From Shigella phage vb_GEC_SH_GT: a DNA stretch of 64,000 bases. The notes below the pieces were generated by a model. That model did not search any database. It had not been told where the DNA came from and was given only the letters and a program-made list of their open reading frames with translations. Location of the stretch: sequence record OR887633; one strand, given 5' to 3'. The position numbers and the translations under genes were made by a program. The number at the start of each line of letters is the position of its first letter. Positions within the stretch are counted from its first letter, which is position 1. Positions 3,669 to 55,629 of the stretch are shown here, one piece after another.

Positions 3669-4415
3669 TTATCCTCGGATAAGTTTAAAAATTGAACAAT
3701 TTAGCGGGTATCCTCTTTTCAGTTTAAGTTTATCAATAAAAGACAAGTTTTGATACCGCTCTACACCTTGAATAATTTTATCACACATATCATATTGCAT
3801 TTCTGCTTCTGACAACTTTTTCACGGTTTTCCAATCTGAGCCTTTAAGAAGAACATTCAATTTAACAACTTCAGCGCCTTCTGCTATACGAGAACCATCA
3901 ATACGAGCTTTAAGTGCTATAATCGTTAGCTTAACGTCAGAGGTTTGTTTTGATTTAGAAAGCTGAGAAATGTGCTCAATTCGGTTTTCGCGTTTTTTCT
4001 GTATAGCTTTAATTTGATTATAAGTCTTTTTGATTTTAGCCCATTTCTTTTCATCTAAATTTAGTTTATGAACTTTTTTCGCAGATGAACGACCAATTCG
4101 CAAAGCAAATAAATCACGCTTTTCAATCAACTCTTCTAAAGTATAATCAGAACGAAATGTATTATACTTTTTCTTTACAGCAATAACATTCCCTTTAATG
4201 TATCCAACGTTATTATCAAAACGTTCTAATGATAATTTCTCTCCTTCAATACGATTATCAAAAGGTTCTCCCGAGTAAGCACAAACTTTCTGATCTAAAA
4301 TGTTCTTAATGTAATTGAAGTCTAAGTTAAAATCTTTAGAACGTCTTTTAGCAGATGCCTGAGTATGCTCTAGACGACGTGTAATTTTACGAATTTGATT
4401 TTTAGACAGTTTCAT
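3669..4415 (-). CDS. Srd-like protein (putative sigma-related early protein)
   Basis: 248 aa basic protein at the T4 srd position between dda.1 and modA; assignment by synteny and size only. Confidence 0.5.
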   Translation of the reverse strand: MKLSKNQIRKITRRLEHTQASAKRRSKDFNLDFNYIKNILDQKVCAYSGEPFDNRIEGEKLSLERFDNNVGYIKGNVIAVKKKYNTFRSDYTLEELIEKRDLFALRIGRSSAKKVHKLNLDEKKWAKIKKTYNQIKAIQKKRENRIEHISQLSKSKQTSDVKLTIIALKARIDGSRIAEGAEVVKLNVLLKGSDWKTVKKLSEAEMQYDMCDKIIQGVERYQNLSFIDKLKLKRGYPLNCSIFKLIRG

Positions 4416-4445
4416 ATTTTTCTCACGGACGGTTAACTACTTATA

Positions 4446-4476
4446 CTATATCATTTTTACTTCAGCTTGTAAACAA
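4446..4476 (-). promoter_or_regulatory. T4-type early promoter (upstream of srd-like gene)
   Basis: Minus strand -35 GTTTAC and -10 TATAGT-like with ~17 bp spacer. Confidence 0.5.
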
Positions 4477-4530: not shown

Positions 4531-5133
4531 TTATAGATTAAATCCTTCAAAGTCAAGAGTATAGATAGTGTATGTTGAATACTTTTTATACTCGTATCTA
4601 TCCGCAATTCTAAATACACTTCCAGCTGGTATCATTACTTCTTGTTCATCTGAAACTAATTCCATATTACGATAGCGATGGCTATCTGGAAACTTAAAAC
4701 TTGGACTATATTCTTTACAACGTAGAGCTTTTATAGCATACTCCTGAAAATTAAATACCATAGGAGCTTTGAATTCAAAAATAACTTGTGTATTGTATTC
4801 TAATCCAGAAGCAAAATGCAGAGCTATATTTTTATCATATGAAGCTGATACTACTTTATCGAATGTAATAATATCAATTCCTTGATTTAACGCCTGCTTA
4901 GTCTCAACTGGAACACCTCTCCAAAGAGGTTTATCGTTTGGAACCAAACGAGATTTGATTATTTCATTTAACCAAGAATGATCGTCTGGCTTATTAGTAA
5001 TACAATGAATTAAAAGTTCAATTTCAGATAAATTAAATCCTTCAGAAAGTAATTCTTCGCGAATAGAAGCACGCACCGATGCATCCATTGATTTGATTTT
5101 AAAATCTTTTAATTGCATTGCTGAATATTTCAT
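4531..5133 (-). CDS. modA: mono-ADP-ribosyltransferase ModA
   Basis: 200 aa; R-S-E ART triad context (LWRGV, SAS, QEVMIP); position between srd and modB. Confidence 0.8.
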   Translation of the reverse strand: MKYSAMQLKDFKIKSMDASVRASIREELLSEGFNLSEIELLIHCITNKPDDHSWLNEIIKSRLVPNDKPLWRGVPVETKQALNQGIDIITFDKVVSASYDKNIALHFASGLEYNTQVIFEFKAPMVFNFQEYAIKALRCKEYSPSFKFPDSHRYRNMELVSDEQEVMIPAGSVFRIADRYEYKKYSTYTIYTLDFEGFNL

Positions 5134-5765
5134 TCAACTACCTCAATATCATACACTTTAAATGTTCCAAATGAATCGTGTAATTTTTCTTTTGAAATAG
5201 AAGTTATTTTATACTTTCCAATTGGAATCATCCATTCTTGTTCATGTACAATCATCATTAAGTTATCAGTACGTTCTGAATCTAATCCATCGGTATCTTC
5301 ATATGTATACTTAAACTCAGTATTAGGAGAAGAAAGTATAATATCGCTGATATGGTCAGAGTAATTAAAAGCTTTATCAGTTTTTAAGCGAAATATTATT
5401 TCAGTGAAATATTCAGCATAAGAAAAAGAACACGCTGTATGCAAACTAGTAGTAAATGAATCTACTCTGTTCGTTGAAAACACTTCTCCAACTTGTAAAT
5501 CTTTAATGAGTTCTTTTGTCGATTTTGATATACCACGATATAACTGATAAGGTGATTCAGTTAAATGCTTTTTAATGATTTTATTCAACTGCCGATGAAG
5601 AGCTTCATTCTTTTTGGCTTCCATACATTGCCAAAGAACTGACTGTTCAAAGTCAGTAAATTTTTCACAGACCTTTTTATACATATCATATTGAAAATCG
5701 ACACTTTCAGCTTTTATAGATAACTGTTCAACATCTGCAGGATTAATAATCATGATAGCCTCCAT
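5130..5765 (-). CDS. modB: mono-ADP-ribosyltransferase ModB
   Basis: 211 aa paralog of ModA (YRGIS, FSTNR, EQEWMIP); overlaps modA by 4 nt. Confidence 0.75.
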   Translation of the reverse strand: MEAIMIINPADVEQLSIKAESVDFQYDMYKKVCEKFTDFEQSVLWQCMEAKKNEALHRQLNKIIKKHLTESPYQLYRGISKSTKELIKDLQVGEVFSTNRVDSFTTSLHTACSFSYAEYFTEIIFRLKTDKAFNYSDHISDIILSSPNTEFKYTYEDTDGLDSERTDNLMMIVHEQEWMIPIGKYKITSISKEKLHDSFGTFKVYDIEVVE

Positions 5766-11926: not shown

Positions 11927-12283
11927 TTAACCTCTATTCATAAAAGCATTAAAAATTTGGTCATCAATTGATGGAACAGCAACCTTTTCTACATCATTTA
12001 ACAAATCATTAATTTCATCAGATAGCATAACGCATGTACCTTTATTTCCTGTAATTGTTACTGCGCAATTACGAACGTTTTCTTTATCAAATTTTAGGTT
12101 AATATTTTCGTAGTGAAAATCCTTTAATGCCGAATATATTTTTAAAATGAAATTGTCTTTTACTACAATAAACCCAACCTCACTATTAAAACGAGGTTCA
12201 TGGAAGCTGTAATAAACCTTTTCATCTATAAAATCGTATGAAATTTTTTCCATTTTTAAATATGAAAATTCAGAACTATACAT
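11927..12283 (-). CDS. hypothetical protein (118 aa, 61.2 position)
   Basis: ORF between 61.1 and sp; no motif. Confidence 0.5.
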   Translation of the reverse strand: MYSSEFSYLKMEKISYDFIDEKVYYSFHEPRFNSEVGFIVVKDNFILKIYSALKDFHYENINLKFDKENVRNCAVTITGNKGTCVMLSDEINDLLNDVEKVAVPSIDDQIFNAFMNRG

Positions 12284-50879: not shown

Positions 50880-51092
50880 TCATTTTTGTCCTGTATTTAC
50901 TTTATGCCGATGCACGGCCTTAACTTTATCAAGGTATTTTTCAAAATTTCGCAATCTAGTATAGTCTGCCGGAGATTGGTTGAGTGATACTTCTCGACGC
51001 AAAGCTGAAATGATATTTCCAACTTCCCTACGAATTTCATCTAATTGAAGAACGGTAAGATTGCGAAGTTGCTTTTCAGTTAATTGTAGCAT
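50880..51092 (-). CDS. hypothetical protein (70 aa; rI.1 position)
   Basis: ORF. Confidence 0.5.
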
Positions 51093-51134
51093 ATATACCC
51101 CTTTAGTTAGATAAACCTATTTATAACTTTTGCA

Positions 51135-51716
51135 CTAACCGAGCTTTTTAGTTAATTCATTCCAATGTTTTCTACACAAAGAAACATAAATTTCATCACC
51201 AATACAGATTTGATTACCTTCTTTAACTGGTGTTCCATCTTCCATTAATCGAGCTGTCATAATAGCTTTTTTACCACAATGACAAACTGCCTTTAGTTCA
51301 ATAAGTTTATCTGCAATCGCTAAAAGTTCTTTAGAACCTTCAAACAATTTTCCAGCGAAATCAGTCCTTAAGCCATAAGCCATAACAGGAACATTATATG
51401 TATCAACAATTCGACTTAATTGATGCACTTGTTCAGTTTTTAAAAACTGAGCTTCATCTACAAATACACAATGAATATCTTTTTGTGCTTCAGCCCATTT
51501 ATAGAACTCGAAAATATCCATATCATCTGTAATAATATTCGCTTCCTGCTTAATTCCAATGCGAGAAACGACTTCGCAGACAGAATCGCGAGTATCAATA
51601 GCAGGCTTAAGAACTAATACACTCATTCCACGTTCTTTATAATTATGTGCAGCAGTCAAAAGAGAAGCAGATTTTCCAGCATTCATTGCTGCATAAGTAA
51701 AAATTAAACTCGCCAT
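51135..51716 (-). CDS. tk: thymidine kinase
   Basis: 193 aa; Walker A AAMNAGKS, C-terminal Zn ribbon CHCGKK...CRKH. Confidence 0.95.
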   Translation of the reverse strand: MASLIFTYAAMNAGKSASLLTAAHNYKERGMSVLVLKPAIDTRDSVCEVVSRIGIKQEANIITDDMDIFEFYKWAEAQKDIHCVFVDEAQFLKTEQVHQLSRIVDTYNVPVMAYGLRTDFAGKLFEGSKELLAIADKLIELKAVCHCGKKAIMTARLMEDGTPVKEGNQICIGDEIYVSLCRKHWNELTKKLG

Positions 51717-51717
51717 T

Positions 51718-51906
51718 TTAGTCCTTAGTTAAATTTTCTAAATATGTTTTTAAATCATTTTCAGCTTTATCGATAGATTTTACTAATTCGTAATATGTTT
51801 CGGCATCTCCATATTCAGAAGATATTTCAAAAGACAAATCCTTTTCTAAACTAATAATTTCACCAACTAAAAATAATATTTCGTTCTTTTGTTCGCGAGT
51901 AATCAT
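51718..51906 (-). CDS. small acidic helical protein, TREQ family member
   Basis: 62 aa MITREQKNEILFLVGEI... Confidence 0.45.
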   Translation of the reverse strand: MITREQKNEILFLVGEIISLEKDLSFEISSEYGDAETYYELVKSIDKAENDLKTYLENLTKD

Positions 51907-52094
51907 AAGGAATTTATATAATTAATGAGTTCTTGTTCTTTATTATCAAATTCTTTGGAAAGTTCTTCATATTCATTTGCGCTAAAAGGACCGCATTCAT
52001 CACAAACTTTTTCTAATTCACTATTTTTATCCATAATTTCGTGGATAAGAGAAAAGAGTTTGTCTTTTTGTTCTTTGCTTAAACTCATAACCAT
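51903..52094 (-). CDS. small acidic helical protein, TREQ family member
   Basis: 63 aa; ...SKEQKDKLFSLIHEI... Confidence 0.45.
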   Translation of the reverse strand: MVMSLSKEQKDKLFSLIHEIMDKNSELEKVCDECGPFSANEYEELSKEFDNKEQELINYINSL

Positions 52095-52312
52095 GTCACC
52101 TTTAAGCAGTATTCTTCTACATGCTGTTTACGACCTTTCTTATCAATAAAGGTATATTCAACGAATGTTCCAATGTAGTCTTTATCTACATCATGTGGAC
52201 TATTAATTGGACATTTAGTACGGCAAATGCGTTCCCATTGACGAATAATTACTGCCTTATTCTTTGGGTCATATGGATGTGGATAATGTATATTCATAAT
52301 AATGGTTCCCAA
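52085..52312 (-). CDS. hypothetical protein (75 aa)
   Basis: ORF. Confidence 0.45.
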   Translation of the reverse strand: MGTIIMNIHYPHPYDPKNKAVIIRQWERICRTKCPINSPHDVDKDYIGTFVEYTFIDKKGRKQHVEEYCLKVTWL

Positions 52313-52761
52313 TCAACAATCACAATTTCTAATTTAGAGGAATACGTATCTAAAATATCTTCAATAATATCCCAGTTCCCTTTACCTATGCCTGCACCAA
52401 TCCTAGGCATATAGATTGTAGGTTTAATCAGTTTATTTTCACCAAACTCATTTAATTCTAACATACAATTCATTAAAGCGGAATACTCAAAATTTGGCCC
52501 TGGTTGAAATTGAGTATAAAGGTTGAAGCAATACGCTTTATGAGTCCTAAAGTATTTTTCATAGACTGAGTAAGAACCGAGTTTAGTTACATCACCCCAT
52601 TCAGTCTGTAATTTATCAGCTTCCAAAATTTTAGGGAAAGCTTTGGTTAATTGACCTGCTACGCCTGAACCCATAGTATGAAAACAATTGCATCCATGCG
52701 CAATATTTTTACCTTCAGCGAAAAGGGCGACAATATCGCCCTTGATATATTTTACAATCAT
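52294..52761 (-). CDS. macro-domain-like protein
   Basis: 155 aa; GDIVAL...NIAHGCNC...MGSGVAG and later GAGIGKG resemble macro-domain ADP-ribose-binding loops. Confidence 0.55.
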   Translation of the reverse strand: MIVKYIKGDIVALFAEGKNIAHGCNCFHTMGSGVAGQLTKAFPKILEADKLQTEWGDVTKLGSYSVYEKYFRTHKAYCFNLYTQFQPGPNFEYSALMNCMLELNEFGENKLIKPTIYMPRIGAGIGKGNWDIIEDILDTYSSKLEIVIVDWEPLL

Positions 52762-53105
52762 CTAGTACTCAATCCTCGATTATAAGAATCTACCAAACGG
52801 TCAACCATTGAATGACAAGCGGCTTTATCTTTCTCCTCCGCAACTGAACATTCTAAGGTATTCCACTTTTTAGCATATCGTTTTAATAATGTATCGTTTT
52901 TGTATCTGCTTGATTTATCTCTTTCTCCGTCTTTATATGCATATATTAATTTCTGTGCAAATTCAGCTTGGCATGCTTTATTTTTCCCACAATAATCTGC
53001 CGCAGTGCGGTTTACATATTCTCTAATTTCAGTATATGATGTATCTGCTGACGCAGAAGCAGAAAATGAAATTAATCCTATACATAAAACCAAAATTTTA
53101 GTCAT
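52758..53105 (-). CDS. secreted Cys-containing protein (vs position)
   Basis: 115 aa; signal peptide MTKILVLCIGLISFSASASA; 4 Cys. Confidence 0.5.
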   Translation of the reverse strand: MTKILVLCIGLISFSASASADTSYTEIREYVNRTAADYCGKNKACQAEFAQKLIYAYKDGERDKSSRYKNDTLLKRYAKKWNTLECSVAEEKDKAACHSMVDRLVDSYNRGLSTR

Positions 53106-53643
53106 TTACTATTTCCAAAAGTTTATTATTTTTAAGGTAATTAGCCTTTTCTAGGACTTCAGAAGCATATTTAGAACCAGCTTTAACATTCCATCCCGAA
53201 TTATAAGAGGATATTGCTTTTCTTATATCGCCCTTATGTATATTTAACCAATAAGAAAGTTCAATGTACGCCCAGGAAGCTGAATTGGACCGTTTATTCA
53301 ACATTCTTTTTATTTCAGCATCGGTCATATTATAACCAAGTTCCTTAACTCTTGCTCGCATAGTAGGCAAATAATTTTGGAACATTCCGTAGGCGTGATG
53401 CTTTGGTTTAGATTTTAAATTAACTCCGCCAGAGCTTTCTTGCCATAAAATAGCAGCCATTATATGACCTAATCCGCTCTTGTGGATATTTTTGTGTGTT
53501 TTATATTTTCCATCCTTAGAAAATTGTTCCCCGAATTGATACGCGTAACGCATGTTATCGAGTTGGACATTACTGAAAGTATGCTCGGAGCTATGTGCCA
53601 TCATTGAAATGGCCAATAGACCAGCGAGTAGTGCTTTTCTCAT
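53098..53643 (-). CDS. secreted lytic transglycosylase-like protein (SLT domain)
   Basis: 181 aa; signal peptide; LWQESSGG...YGMFQ catalytic Glu-Ser-Ser motif. Confidence 0.7.
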   Translation of the reverse strand: MRKALLAGLLAISMMAHSSEHTFSNVQLDNMRYAYQFGEQFSKDGKYKTHKNIHKSGLGHIMAAILWQESSGGVNLKSKPKHHAYGMFQNYLPTMRARVKELGYNMTDAEIKRMLNKRSNSASWAYIELSYWLNIHKGDIRKAISSYNSGWNVKAGSKYASEVLEKANYLKNNKLLEIVND

Positions 53644-53650
53644 GCTTACC

Positions 53651-54112
53651 TCATTGAGTTTTAATTACTGCTTTAGAAGCCTTTCCTGGTAAACGACGAC
53701 TGTTAATAATTGCCATCCTACATTGAAGTGACGGGTCTTTGAACTTCTCATTAGGTTTACAAACTGTAAATCCAAGCCAAAGATTTCCATCTGTGATTTC
53801 TAAACGTCCAGGACGATATTCAATTCCATCAATAAAATCCTCGTCAATGTCAGGACGCGGAGGCATACTCAGGAATTCATTAACTTCTAAAACATGGTCT
53901 TTTATTTTATGGAATAATTCAAAAACATATGTCTCATCAATCTCCCGTTGAATTGCACGATCAAGAAGATGCTGAGAATATTTTAGATGAAACGATGAGA
54001 CTCCTGCTGCTTTTGATGCCTCACGAATCTCATTGTTAATTTGACGAAACTCCGACTCAAAGTGACGACGAAGCTTATTTCGACGGATAAAAACTTCTGT
54101 ATTGATAGTCAT
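53651..54112 (-). CDS. regB: endoribonuclease RegB
   Basis: 153 aa; N-terminus MTINTEVFIRRNKL as T4 RegB; early promoter 54140..54169. Confidence 0.9.
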   Translation of the reverse strand: MTINTEVFIRRNKLRRHFESEFRQINNEIREASKAAGVSSFHLKYSQHLLDRAIQREIDETYVFELFHKIKDHVLEVNEFLSMPPRPDIDEDFIDGIEYRPGRLEITDGNLWLGFTVCKPNEKFKDPSLQCRMAIINSRRLPGKASKAVIKTQ

Positions 54113-54139
54113 GTTGTTCTCCTCTTAACTGATAGAAAA

Positions 54140-54169
54140 ATTATACCACAGTCAAGAGGAAAAGTAAAC
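54140..54169 (-). promoter_or_regulatory. T4-type early promoter upstream of regB
   Basis: Minus strand GTTTAC...TGTGGTATAAT. Confidence 0.6.
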
Positions 54170-54171
54170 AG

Positions 54172-54492
54172 TTATTCTTTAAATCTAATCAATTTATTCA
54201 TAGACTTTGAAACTTCCGCACGAATCTCATGTAGATTTTTGAGCTGTTCAAGACGCTGCGTATAGTAAGCAATTTCATCTTCTTCGAGACAGTCCTGCGA
54301 ATCTTCTTTAAGATAACGTGCATAGTCCTGGAAAGCTTTACGGACTACTTCCTGGAAGTCATCAAGACTTTGAATTTTCTTAGGAGCAACAGATACACGA
54401 CGAGGGGCAGTATAATACTCATAACCAAACCCTGCGCTTAATTGAGCCATTAGTATTTTTCCTCTGGTTGGAACACAGCACGGCAAGCCCAC
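54172..54492 (-). CDS. hypothetical protein (106 aa; vs.3 position)
   Basis: ORF. Confidence 0.45.
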
Positions 54493-54752
54493 ATACTTGC
54501 TTCTTTGAGTTTCGTTTTAGCAATAGTTAACTGATCGAGGCTTTCGGCGTAATTCTTCGCGAGTTCATCATCTTCACAGCTATCAAATGCTTCCCAAAAT
54601 TCATCGTATAAAGCATCAAAGATAAGTCCTAAACGAACTTCAGCATCTTTAATAGCATTTACTTTACCGATTTTTTCGTCGGTATGTGGCTTATAACCTT
54701 TAATATCTTCAATCATATTTGACTTCCTCACCAGTACATAAATCGTATTCAA
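54450..54752 (-). CDS. hypothetical protein (vs.4 position)
   Basis: ~90-100 aa ORF; occupies the slot I recall as vs.4 in T4; no motif recognised. Confidence 0.45.
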
Positions 54753-54930
54753 CTAAACGAATAGGTTCATGAATGCCATATCCCTGAACAGAAATTTCTG
54801 TCGTAGGATAAATTCCACTAATATCACCCATGTTCCATGCTTCGTTAAATTGCTGTTCGCCTGAATTACTAAACCATTCGGCGAAAGCATTTAGCGCATC
54901 TTCAGAACCTTCAATAATTATCTTTGCCAT
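54709..54930 (-). CDS. hypothetical protein (73 aa)
   Basis: ORF. Confidence 0.4.
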   Translation of the reverse strand: MAKIIIEGSEDALNAFAEWFSNSGEQQFNEAWNMGDISGIYPTTEISVQGYGIHEPIRLVEYDLCTGEEVKYD

Positions 54931-55292
54931 TACAAACTCTCGGTAAAGGTACGAGCGATAACATCGCGCTGCTGTTCCGGAGTCAGAGAGTTAAAGCGAA
55001 CTGCATAACCGGATACACGGATGGTCAGCTGCGGATATTTTTCCGGATGCTTAACTGCATCTTCCAGAGTTTCACGACGCAGAACGTTAACGTTCAGGTG
55101 TTGACCACCTTCAATTTTAACTGTAGGCTGTGGCTCAATTTCAATTTCACGGGCATGCAAACCATAGAAAATTTCTGGGTCTACAAAAGAGTCCTCTTTA
55201 AAGGTTTTAGAGACAATAATTCGTGCTTGAATACCATCTTCAAAATAAATAGTACCTTTATGTGTGCCTTCAAGAATTTGATATGCTTTCAT
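54930..55292 (-). CDS. autonomous glycyl-radical cofactor (GrcA/YfiD-like)
   Basis: 120 aa; C-terminal ...[42 protein letters not shown]... with glycyl radical motif RVSGYAV. Confidence 0.85.
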
Positions 55293-55299
55293 ATAAACC

Positions 55300-55629
55300 T
55301 CAATTAGAAAATAAATTTATCCAAGATTGTTCTTTAATTAAAAATGGCTCAGAATCATATGCCATTAAACTCTGTGTGATTAGTCCTTTAAAAGGCCCAT
55401 CAATAAATTCCATGGTAAAATATGGAATTTTATTCATTAGCCGTGCATTAGGAGCAGTACACAAAACTCTGCATCCTTTGAATACGCCTTTTTGTAATTT
55501 GTATTGCTTAGGATAAAATTCGCTCAAGACGTTGTTATTTGCCAAAATTTCAAAATGATTCACCAATTTATTTTTAATAGTTTTTGGCGAAAAATAAAGA
55601 TATTCGAAAAGCTGTGTGTCTGTCATCAT
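55300..55629 (-). CDS. hypothetical protein
   Basis: Track ORF trimmed to ATG overlapping upstream stop (ATGA). Confidence 0.45.

Follow-up and report, generated by a model that had tools for sequence, protein, structure and literature searches.

The CDS located at 52294..52761 on the minus strand of the window (the whole stretch of 64,000 nucleotides that was analysed) has been identified as the gene tk.4 (adfM) of a T4-like phage; it encodes a standalone macrodomain that belongs to the TARG1/DarG/SCO6735 (ALC1-like) class. For the explanation as a whole, namely that Tk.4 should be a glutamine-type eraser of the ADP-ribose that DarT2 attaches to thymidine, and thus serve in counter-defence, we estimate a probability of about three in four. 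Published work already covers the gene, its fold and its biological role, and the finding is not new; what is added here is the glutamine-type, SCO6735-like active site, and that Tk.4 is not orthologous to the AdfM of phage PhiKZ.

The tk.4 gene and its neighbours

The CDS runs from an ATG to a TGA codon and encodes 155 residues, and one macro domain spans the entire protein. The translation contains MIVKYIKGDIVALFAEGKNIAHGCNCFHTMGSGVAGQ followed by YMPRIGAGIGKGNWDII, and all the motifs quoted in an earlier note on this DNA can be found in it. The protein is 100% identical to Tk.4 of RB14 and 99.4% identical to that of T4, and the 3.2 kb around the gene shows 98.5–98.6% DNA identity to T4, RB14 and relatives. 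The genes are ordered regB, vs.1, vs, tk.4, tk.3, tk.2, tk.1 and tk, all on the minus strand, which is the order of the tk-vs region of T4, and the 155-residue CDS is therefore tk.4. Compared with tk.4 (AdfM) of T4 it is the same gene in the same place between vs and tk.3, with no substantive difference.

RB14 has two additional small CDSs between tk.2 and tk.3, RB32ORF110c and RB32ORF111c, which comprise about 373 bp. They are absent from the window at the corresponding place (about 52085-52100), the RB14 counterpart being located at 4086-4462 of the compared locus. Since these CDSs are missing, yet Tk.4 is identical to that of RB14 and not to that of T4, the window constitutes a mosaic T4-like genome, which differs from T4 by its DNA identity of about 98.5% and by a 118-residue 61.2-like CDS of the RB14 type. 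This CDS (11927-12283, minus strand) is located upstream of the primase gene 61 and 61.1, and corresponds in position and length to the CDS annotated as 'similar to gp61.2' in RB14/RB32; the phage may have an allele of AdfA (gp61.2), another anti-DarT factor, that is unlike the one in T4.

According to the sequence and the ORF coordinates, the stop codon of vs and the start codon of tk.4 overlap in an ATGA at 52758..52761 (minus strand), and the sequence has a second ATGA at 52294..52297 (minus strand), shared by the stop codon of tk.4 and the start codon of tk.3 (ATG at 52297). The tk.3 start was set at MNIHYPHP by the 70-residue tk.3 annotation of RB14. The two overlaps suggest that vs, tk.4 and tk.3, which follow each other on the same strand, may be translationally coupled. 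A scan of the region 51000-55500 for σ70 promoters and terminators gave 15 sites, against 16.6 ± 4.4 in shuffled sequence, and hence no excess, and it supports no promoter claim for tk.4 itself. The sole plausible promoter-like site in this region is a TG-extended TTTACT-17-TATAAT at 54168-54140 on the minus strand, upstream of regB. Within tk.4, at 52723-52743 (codons 7–13, 19–39 nt 3' of the start codon), AAGGGCGA-CAATA-TCGCCCTT makes up an inverted repeat of 8 bp that is perfect and rich in G+C. The scan recorded it as resembling a terminator of the other strand; it could form an mRNA hairpin near the translation start of tk.4.

The flanking genes have features of their own. The vs product (52758-53105, minus strand) is a 115-residue 'valyl-tRNA synthetase modifier' that has no Pfam match and starts with a hydrophobic stretch resembling a signal peptide (MTKILVLCIGLISFSASASA), and an exported protein fits poorly with the modification of a cytoplasmic synthetase. 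In the HIDEN-SEQ preprint no T4 gene is more strongly depleted than vs when minimal medium is set against LB (bioRxiv 10.1101/2025.11.20.689424). The records of RB14 and T4 list vs.1 (53098-53643, minus strand) only as hypothetical; its product of 181 residues starts with what looks like a signal peptide and matches the Pfam domain of SLT lytic transglycosylases (25.1 bits, cut-off 21.3). Directly downstream of tk.4, tk.3 (52085-52297, minus strand) encodes, from an overlapping start codon, a small protein of the DUF7202 family (E=2e-38), and polarity on tk.3 has to be ruled out when knockouts of tk.4 are interpreted.

Macro fold and active site

The earlier note had called the protein macro-domain-like, and Pfam, the profile-to-PDB search and the comparison of the predicted structure all agree with this call. 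The match to the Pfam Macro domain (PF01661) has a score of 28.4 bits (gathering score 22, E=1.7e-6) and covers profile positions 2–117 of 118. In a phmmer search of the PDB sequences all significant matches are macrodomains, with E-values of 7e-10 for BT1257, 2e-6 for Poa1p, 2e-4 for SCO6735, 3e-4 for DarG and 9e-4 for TARG1, and a profile of 93 homologs matches BT1257 (8e-19), TARG1 (4e-16), SCO6735 (1e-14), Poa1p (4e-14) and DarG (5e-14 and 7e-12). An AlphaFold2 model based on the 93-sequence alignment (pLDDT 95.7, pTM 0.91) was used instead of a single-sequence model, which was discarded (pLDDT 38.5). It has the three-layer α/β/α macro fold, and its top match with Foldseek is human TARG1/OARD1 (2.6e-10), so that structure prediction, a check proposed in the same note, gives a macro fold with macrodomains as the nearest structures. 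The nearest neighbours in sequence and structure belong to the ALC1-like/TARG1-like class, apart from the MacroD, viral and PARG types.

Among the 93 homologs G33, A35, D49, Y82, Q84, P119, I121, G122 and G124 are invariant, and H22, G23, C24, N25, C26, M30, N80, T83, G127, G128 and W130 are conserved in at least 90%. Conservation and alignment place the catalytic loop (loop 1) at residues 22–35 (H22-G-C-N25-C-F-H-T-M-G-S-G33-V-A35; 52657..52698, minus strand) and the diphosphate-binding loop (loop 2) at residues 119–130 (P-R-I-G122-A-G124-I-G-K-G-N-W130; 52372..52407, minus strand). They contain the two glycine-rich ADP-ribose/diphosphate-binding stretches, G31-S-G33-V-A35 and G122-A-G124-I-G-K-G128. 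A third conserved motif, N80-L-Y82-T83-Q84 (52510..52524, minus strand), ends with a glutamine at the position of the catalytic lysine of TARG1 and DarG.

This placement of Q84 was obtained in three independent alignments: the profile-to-PDB alignment, a MAFFT alignment with DarG, TARG1 and PhiKZ gp104, and hmmalign to the family profile. Q84 aligns with K84 of TARG1, with K80 in the 'FPTK' of DarG and with Q85 of SCO6735, and the motif reads N-L-Y-T-Q in Tk.4, Y-L-I-T-K in TARG1 and N-F-P-T-K in DarG; the catalytic lysine of TARG1 and DarG (K84/K80) is thus replaced by an invariant glutamine. The second catalytic residue of TARG1, D125, corresponds to G126 of Tk.4 in the profile-to-PDB alignment, and human TARG1/OARD1 (PDB 4J5R, 4J5S), which removes thymidine-linked ADP-ribose from DNA, consequently differs from Tk.4 in both residues of the dyad, K84/D125 being Q84/G126. 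The chemistry of Tk.4 is probably not lysine-dependent as in DarG and TARG1, judging from these alignments.

The absence of the lysine leaves the class membership of Tk.4 standing, since SCO6735, an accepted ALC1-like member, has the same exchange of lysine for glutamine. The sequence of SCO6735 was taken from the PDB and aligned to the Tk.4 family profile with hmmalign. H24, N27, Q85, G126 and G128 of SCO6735 are conserved in Tk.4 as H22, N25, Q84, G122 and G124, where N27/N25 is the loop-1 asparagine that is needed for activity and is conserved also in DarG. The two lysines that position the DNA in SCO6735, K34 and K89, correspond to S32 and G88 of Tk.4, and the DNA binding or surface of Tk.4 must therefore differ from that of SCO6735; K127, specific to T4, is a candidate for a basic residue that takes the place of these lysines. 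With glutamine at the lysine position SCO6735 still efficiently cleaves thymidine-linked ADP-ribose from DNA and protects against DarT (PMC9411070). Its Q85A substitution abolishes the activity, N27S nearly abolishes it and G128E lowers it, and in the proposed mechanism the glutamine positions the distal ribose while a water molecule protonates O2 of the thymine (PMC9411070).

SCO6735 of S. coelicolor (PDB 5E3B) and BT1257 of Bacteroides (2AFC/2FG1), the latter being the best structural and sequence match, are like Tk.4 standalone proteins of about 150–160 residues with no toxin partner, and they share with it a glutamine at the position of the catalytic lysine (Q85 in SCO6735, Q84 in Tk.4) together with the histidine, the asparagine and the two loop-2 glycines. 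The identity to these two proteins is only about 26–29%, however, the motif of SCO6735 is N-M-I-G-Q instead of N-L-Y-T-Q, and Tk.4 lacks the insertion of 5–6 residues that follows the glutamine motif in SCO6735. On its sequence, Tk.4 is best described as a predicted glutamine-type enzyme of the SCO6735/BT1257 kind with a Y-T-Q signature of its own.

The similarity to yeast Poa1p, a phosphatase, is a caveat to the reading of Tk.4 as an eraser, since it is about equal to that of DarG both by phmmer and with the profile. Tk.4 could accordingly be an ADP-ribose-1''-phosphate phosphatase like Poa1p, or process O-acetyl-ADP-ribose or a defence signal, but we regard this as very improbable. The comparison with Poa1p considered sequence and structure, including the loop-1 motif H-x-C-N-C. 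In the phmmer alignment Poa1p has a serine at the Q84 position (L-F-T-S against L-Y-T-Q of Tk.4). RNA repair in T4 proceeds through Pnk and Rnl1 and is not known to leave a 2'-phosphate, so that no Appr>p or Appr-1''-p would arise as a substrate for such a phosphatase. A role on small molecules would moreover leave the DarTG2-specific requirement for tk.4, described below, unexplained. The 'phosphatase' label of the family in PHROGs and RefSeq derives from A1pp, an earlier name of the domain, and not from an assay; an A1pp/macro match of the tk.4 orthologs has been on record since 2006 (PMC1524935). The suggestion in the earlier note that ADPR-derived signals might be degraded found no support and is a poorer fit to the substrates of the class (PMC9411070, PMC13036486).

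Role against DarTG2

That the protein might reverse an ADP-ribosylating defence of the host, which had been put forward from the sequence, is backed by published genetics on tk.4 of T4. In a HIDEN-SEQ preprint from November 2025, a transposon library of T4 was grown on E. coli expressing DarTG2, and tk.4 was the single significant match, being depleted on this host; a clean deletion of tk.4 made T4 sensitive to DarTG2 (bioRxiv 10.1101/2025.11.20.689424). The gene was renamed adfM (anti-DarT factor Macrodomain), the likeness to the structure of DarG from M. tuberculosis was remarked on, and enzymatic removal of ADP-ribose from DNA by AdfM was said to 'seem likely' (bioRxiv 10.1101/2025.11.20.689424). 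The genetics were performed with plasmid-expressed DarTG2 at 30 °C in minimal medium and come from a preprint (bioRxiv 10.1101/2025.11.20.689424). T4 without adfA and adfN is still resistant to DarTG2 (PMC11825919), which is consistent with the role of tk.4. An enzymatic or biochemical assay of T4 Tk.4 itself was looked for and not found in the literature searched. We have high confidence that Tk.4 is the macrodomain required against DarTG2, and moderate confidence that it would act by catalytic removal of ADP-ribose through a glutamine-type mechanism.

Tk.4 is expressed with the other early-region genes of the run regB-vs.1-vs-tk.4-tk.3. In the mechanism we propose, DarT2 of the host ADP-ribosylates thymidines in single-stranded phage DNA and thereby blocks replication. 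Tk.4 should then bind the DNA-linked ADP-ribose between loop 1 (H22...N25...G31-S-G-V-A35) and loop 2 (G122-A-G-I-G-K-G128), which form a cleft, and hydrolyse the N-glycosidic bond between ribose and thymine, which would give normal, replicable DNA and free ADP-ribose. Q84 would be buttressed by N25 in an SCO6735-like arrangement, and the hydrolysis would be initiated by a water molecule, with the substrate positioned by Gln84 and Asn25.

Protection might also be achieved mainly without catalysis, if Tk.4 mimicked an antitoxin and neutralized DarT2 by binding to the toxin or by masking its single-stranded DNA target. The catalytically dead variants SCO6735 Q85A, DarG K80A and TARG1 K84A inhibit DarT in vitro, SCO6735 most strongly (PMC9411070), and for further anti-DarT factors of phages, AdfA among them, a direct association with the toxin has been examined. 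Tk.4 is however a bare macrodomain of 155 residues without a C-terminal domain for binding DarT, and H22, N25, Y82, T83, Q84, G122 and G124 are strictly kept in phages and in at least 515 bacterial species, with no recurrent DarT neighbour beside the best 80 of these, which argues for an enzyme. We therefore consider a non-catalytic mode of action to be improbable, and enzymatic removal of the ADP-ribose remains the preferred reading.

The product is not a DarG-type antitoxin, a possibility that was considered and rejected. Against the NCBIfam DarG equivalog NF048014 Tk.4 scores 31.4 bits where the cut-off is 250, far below what an equivalog requires, and the match covers model positions 2–147 of 338, the macrodomain half; with the DarG model of PADLOC the score is 37 bits over positions 2–145 of 329. 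DarG (DarG2; PDB 5M31, 5M3E, 5M3I, 7OMU) has the FPTK lysine, a C-terminal DarT-binding domain and an adjacent darT, whereas Tk.4 has LYTQ without the catalytic lysine, no such domain, and vs and tk.3 as neighbours.

The phage encodes its own ADP-ribosyltransferases, as the earlier note had stated. The CDSs at 4531..5133 and 5130..5765, both on the minus strand, match PHROG 832 ('RNA polymerase ADP-ribosylase') and occupy the positions of modA and modB in RB14, and the ModA/ModB assignment of 4531..5765 rests on this PHROG and on the RB14 annotation; a Pfam-A search of the two ORFs gave no match at E<=0.01. Macrodomains are general erasers of ADP-ribose, SCO6735 and TARG1 act also on protein-linked ADP-ribose (PMC9411070), and with modA and modB in the same window Tk.4 could be imagined to edit the phage's own modifications, by stripping host proteins of the ADP-ribose, or the ADP-ribose-linked RNA, added by Alt, ModA or ModB. 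The distance between tk.4 and modA/modB is about 47 kb and the genes are hence not co-located; the link is one of co-occurrence only, with no functional tie to tk.4. The ADP-ribosyltransferases of T4 modify arginine, and ALC1-like macrodomains are not known to be Arg-ADPr hydrolases. The substrates reported for characterised members of the class are ADP-ribose linked to Glu/Asp and to the bases T/U (thymidine/uracil), and a role in tuning the phage's own ADP-ribosylation by ModA, ModB and Alt, although proposed beforehand, finds no support and is a poorer fit to these substrates (PMC9411070, PMC13036486). The sole phenotype reported for tk.4 is also specific for DarTG2, and we give such self-editing very little credence.

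Distribution, origin and relation to other anti-DarT factors

By tblastn, relatives of Tk.4 are present in 2767 of 50,697 phage records (about 5%). Judged by organism name and genome size, they are found in T4-like phages and in many unrelated ones, among them Escherichia/Salmonella phages of about 87 kb, Salmonella and Klebsiella phages of about 150–160 kb and Pseudomonas phages of about 92 kb, and also in Rhodococcus, Streptomyces and Listeria phages. With one genome per species there are at least 515 bacterial relatives, and the best 80 of these show 32–43% identity to Tk.4 and nearly all keep N-x-Y-T-Q. An origin of Tk.4 as a captured antitoxin was considered, and DarT was therefore sought in a Pfam scan of the 140 nearest-neighbour ORFs of the same best 80 of the at least 515 relatives. 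The neighbours are heterogeneous (semialdehyde dehydrogenase 7, NADAR 3, NAPRTase/NAMPT 2), and DarT is absent from the 25 most frequent of their 111 Pfam families, which go down to two members. Since no recurrent DarT neighbour is found among these 140 ORFs, the distribution argues that Tk.4 may derive from a widespread family of standalone macrodomains rather than from a DarTG operon. The three NADAR and two NAPRTase/NAMPT neighbours hint at small NAD/ADP-ribose gene clusters or prophage-derived regions in some genomes.

PhiKZ gp104, which is also named AdfM, is likewise a standalone phage macrodomain that counters DarTG2 and has a catalytic asparagine; N23 of gp104 aligns with N25 of Tk.4 by MAFFT. 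It was found biochemically to remove the ADP-ribose made by DarT2, with reduced activity of an N23A variant (Cell Rep 2026, PMC13309987). It belongs however to a different subfamily of genuine DarG type that keeps the 'FPTK' lysine, and among solved structures it matches DarG only (E=1e-24 to 9e-18). The BLASTP comparison with Tk.4 gives E=0.047 at 20% identity; hmmalign put the 'FPTK' of gp104 a few columns off, and the MAFFT and gp104-DarG alignments were used for this protein. For gp104 there is direct biochemical proof and import into the phage nucleus, neither of which applies to Tk.4. Two distinct macrodomain lineages thus share the name AdfM, and members of the Tk.4 family are presently annotated as 'phosphatase', 'O-acetyl-ADP-ribose deacetylase' or 'AdfM'.

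As Tk.4 has no catalytic lysine to target, catalytically dead controls should be made at Q84 or N25. With a slight preference, we read AdfM not as a captured DarG antitoxin but as a lysine-independent, glutamine-type (SCO6735-like) hydrolase of ADP-ribose on nucleic acids, which would have been taken up on its own out of the very large family of standalone cellular 'N-x-Y-T-Q' macrodomains; anti-DarT2 erasers would then have been acquired at least two times, out of distinct macrodomain lineages (Tk.4 and PhiKZ gp104), the many homologs in cells would protect generally against ADP-ribosylation of thymine/uracil, and U-ADPr on RNA might be a further substrate of Tk.4.

The phage family of T4 has further anti-DarT factors in AdfN (gp30.3, NADAR) and AdfA (gp61.2). 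AdfN is, like Tk.4, an orphan eraser enzyme that resembles an antitoxin, but it has the unrelated NADAR fold, is specific for the guanine-ADPr made by DarT1 and has no effect on DarTG2. The T-even phages hence stack their counter-defences, with AdfA, with AdfN against DarTG1 and with AdfM against DarTG2.
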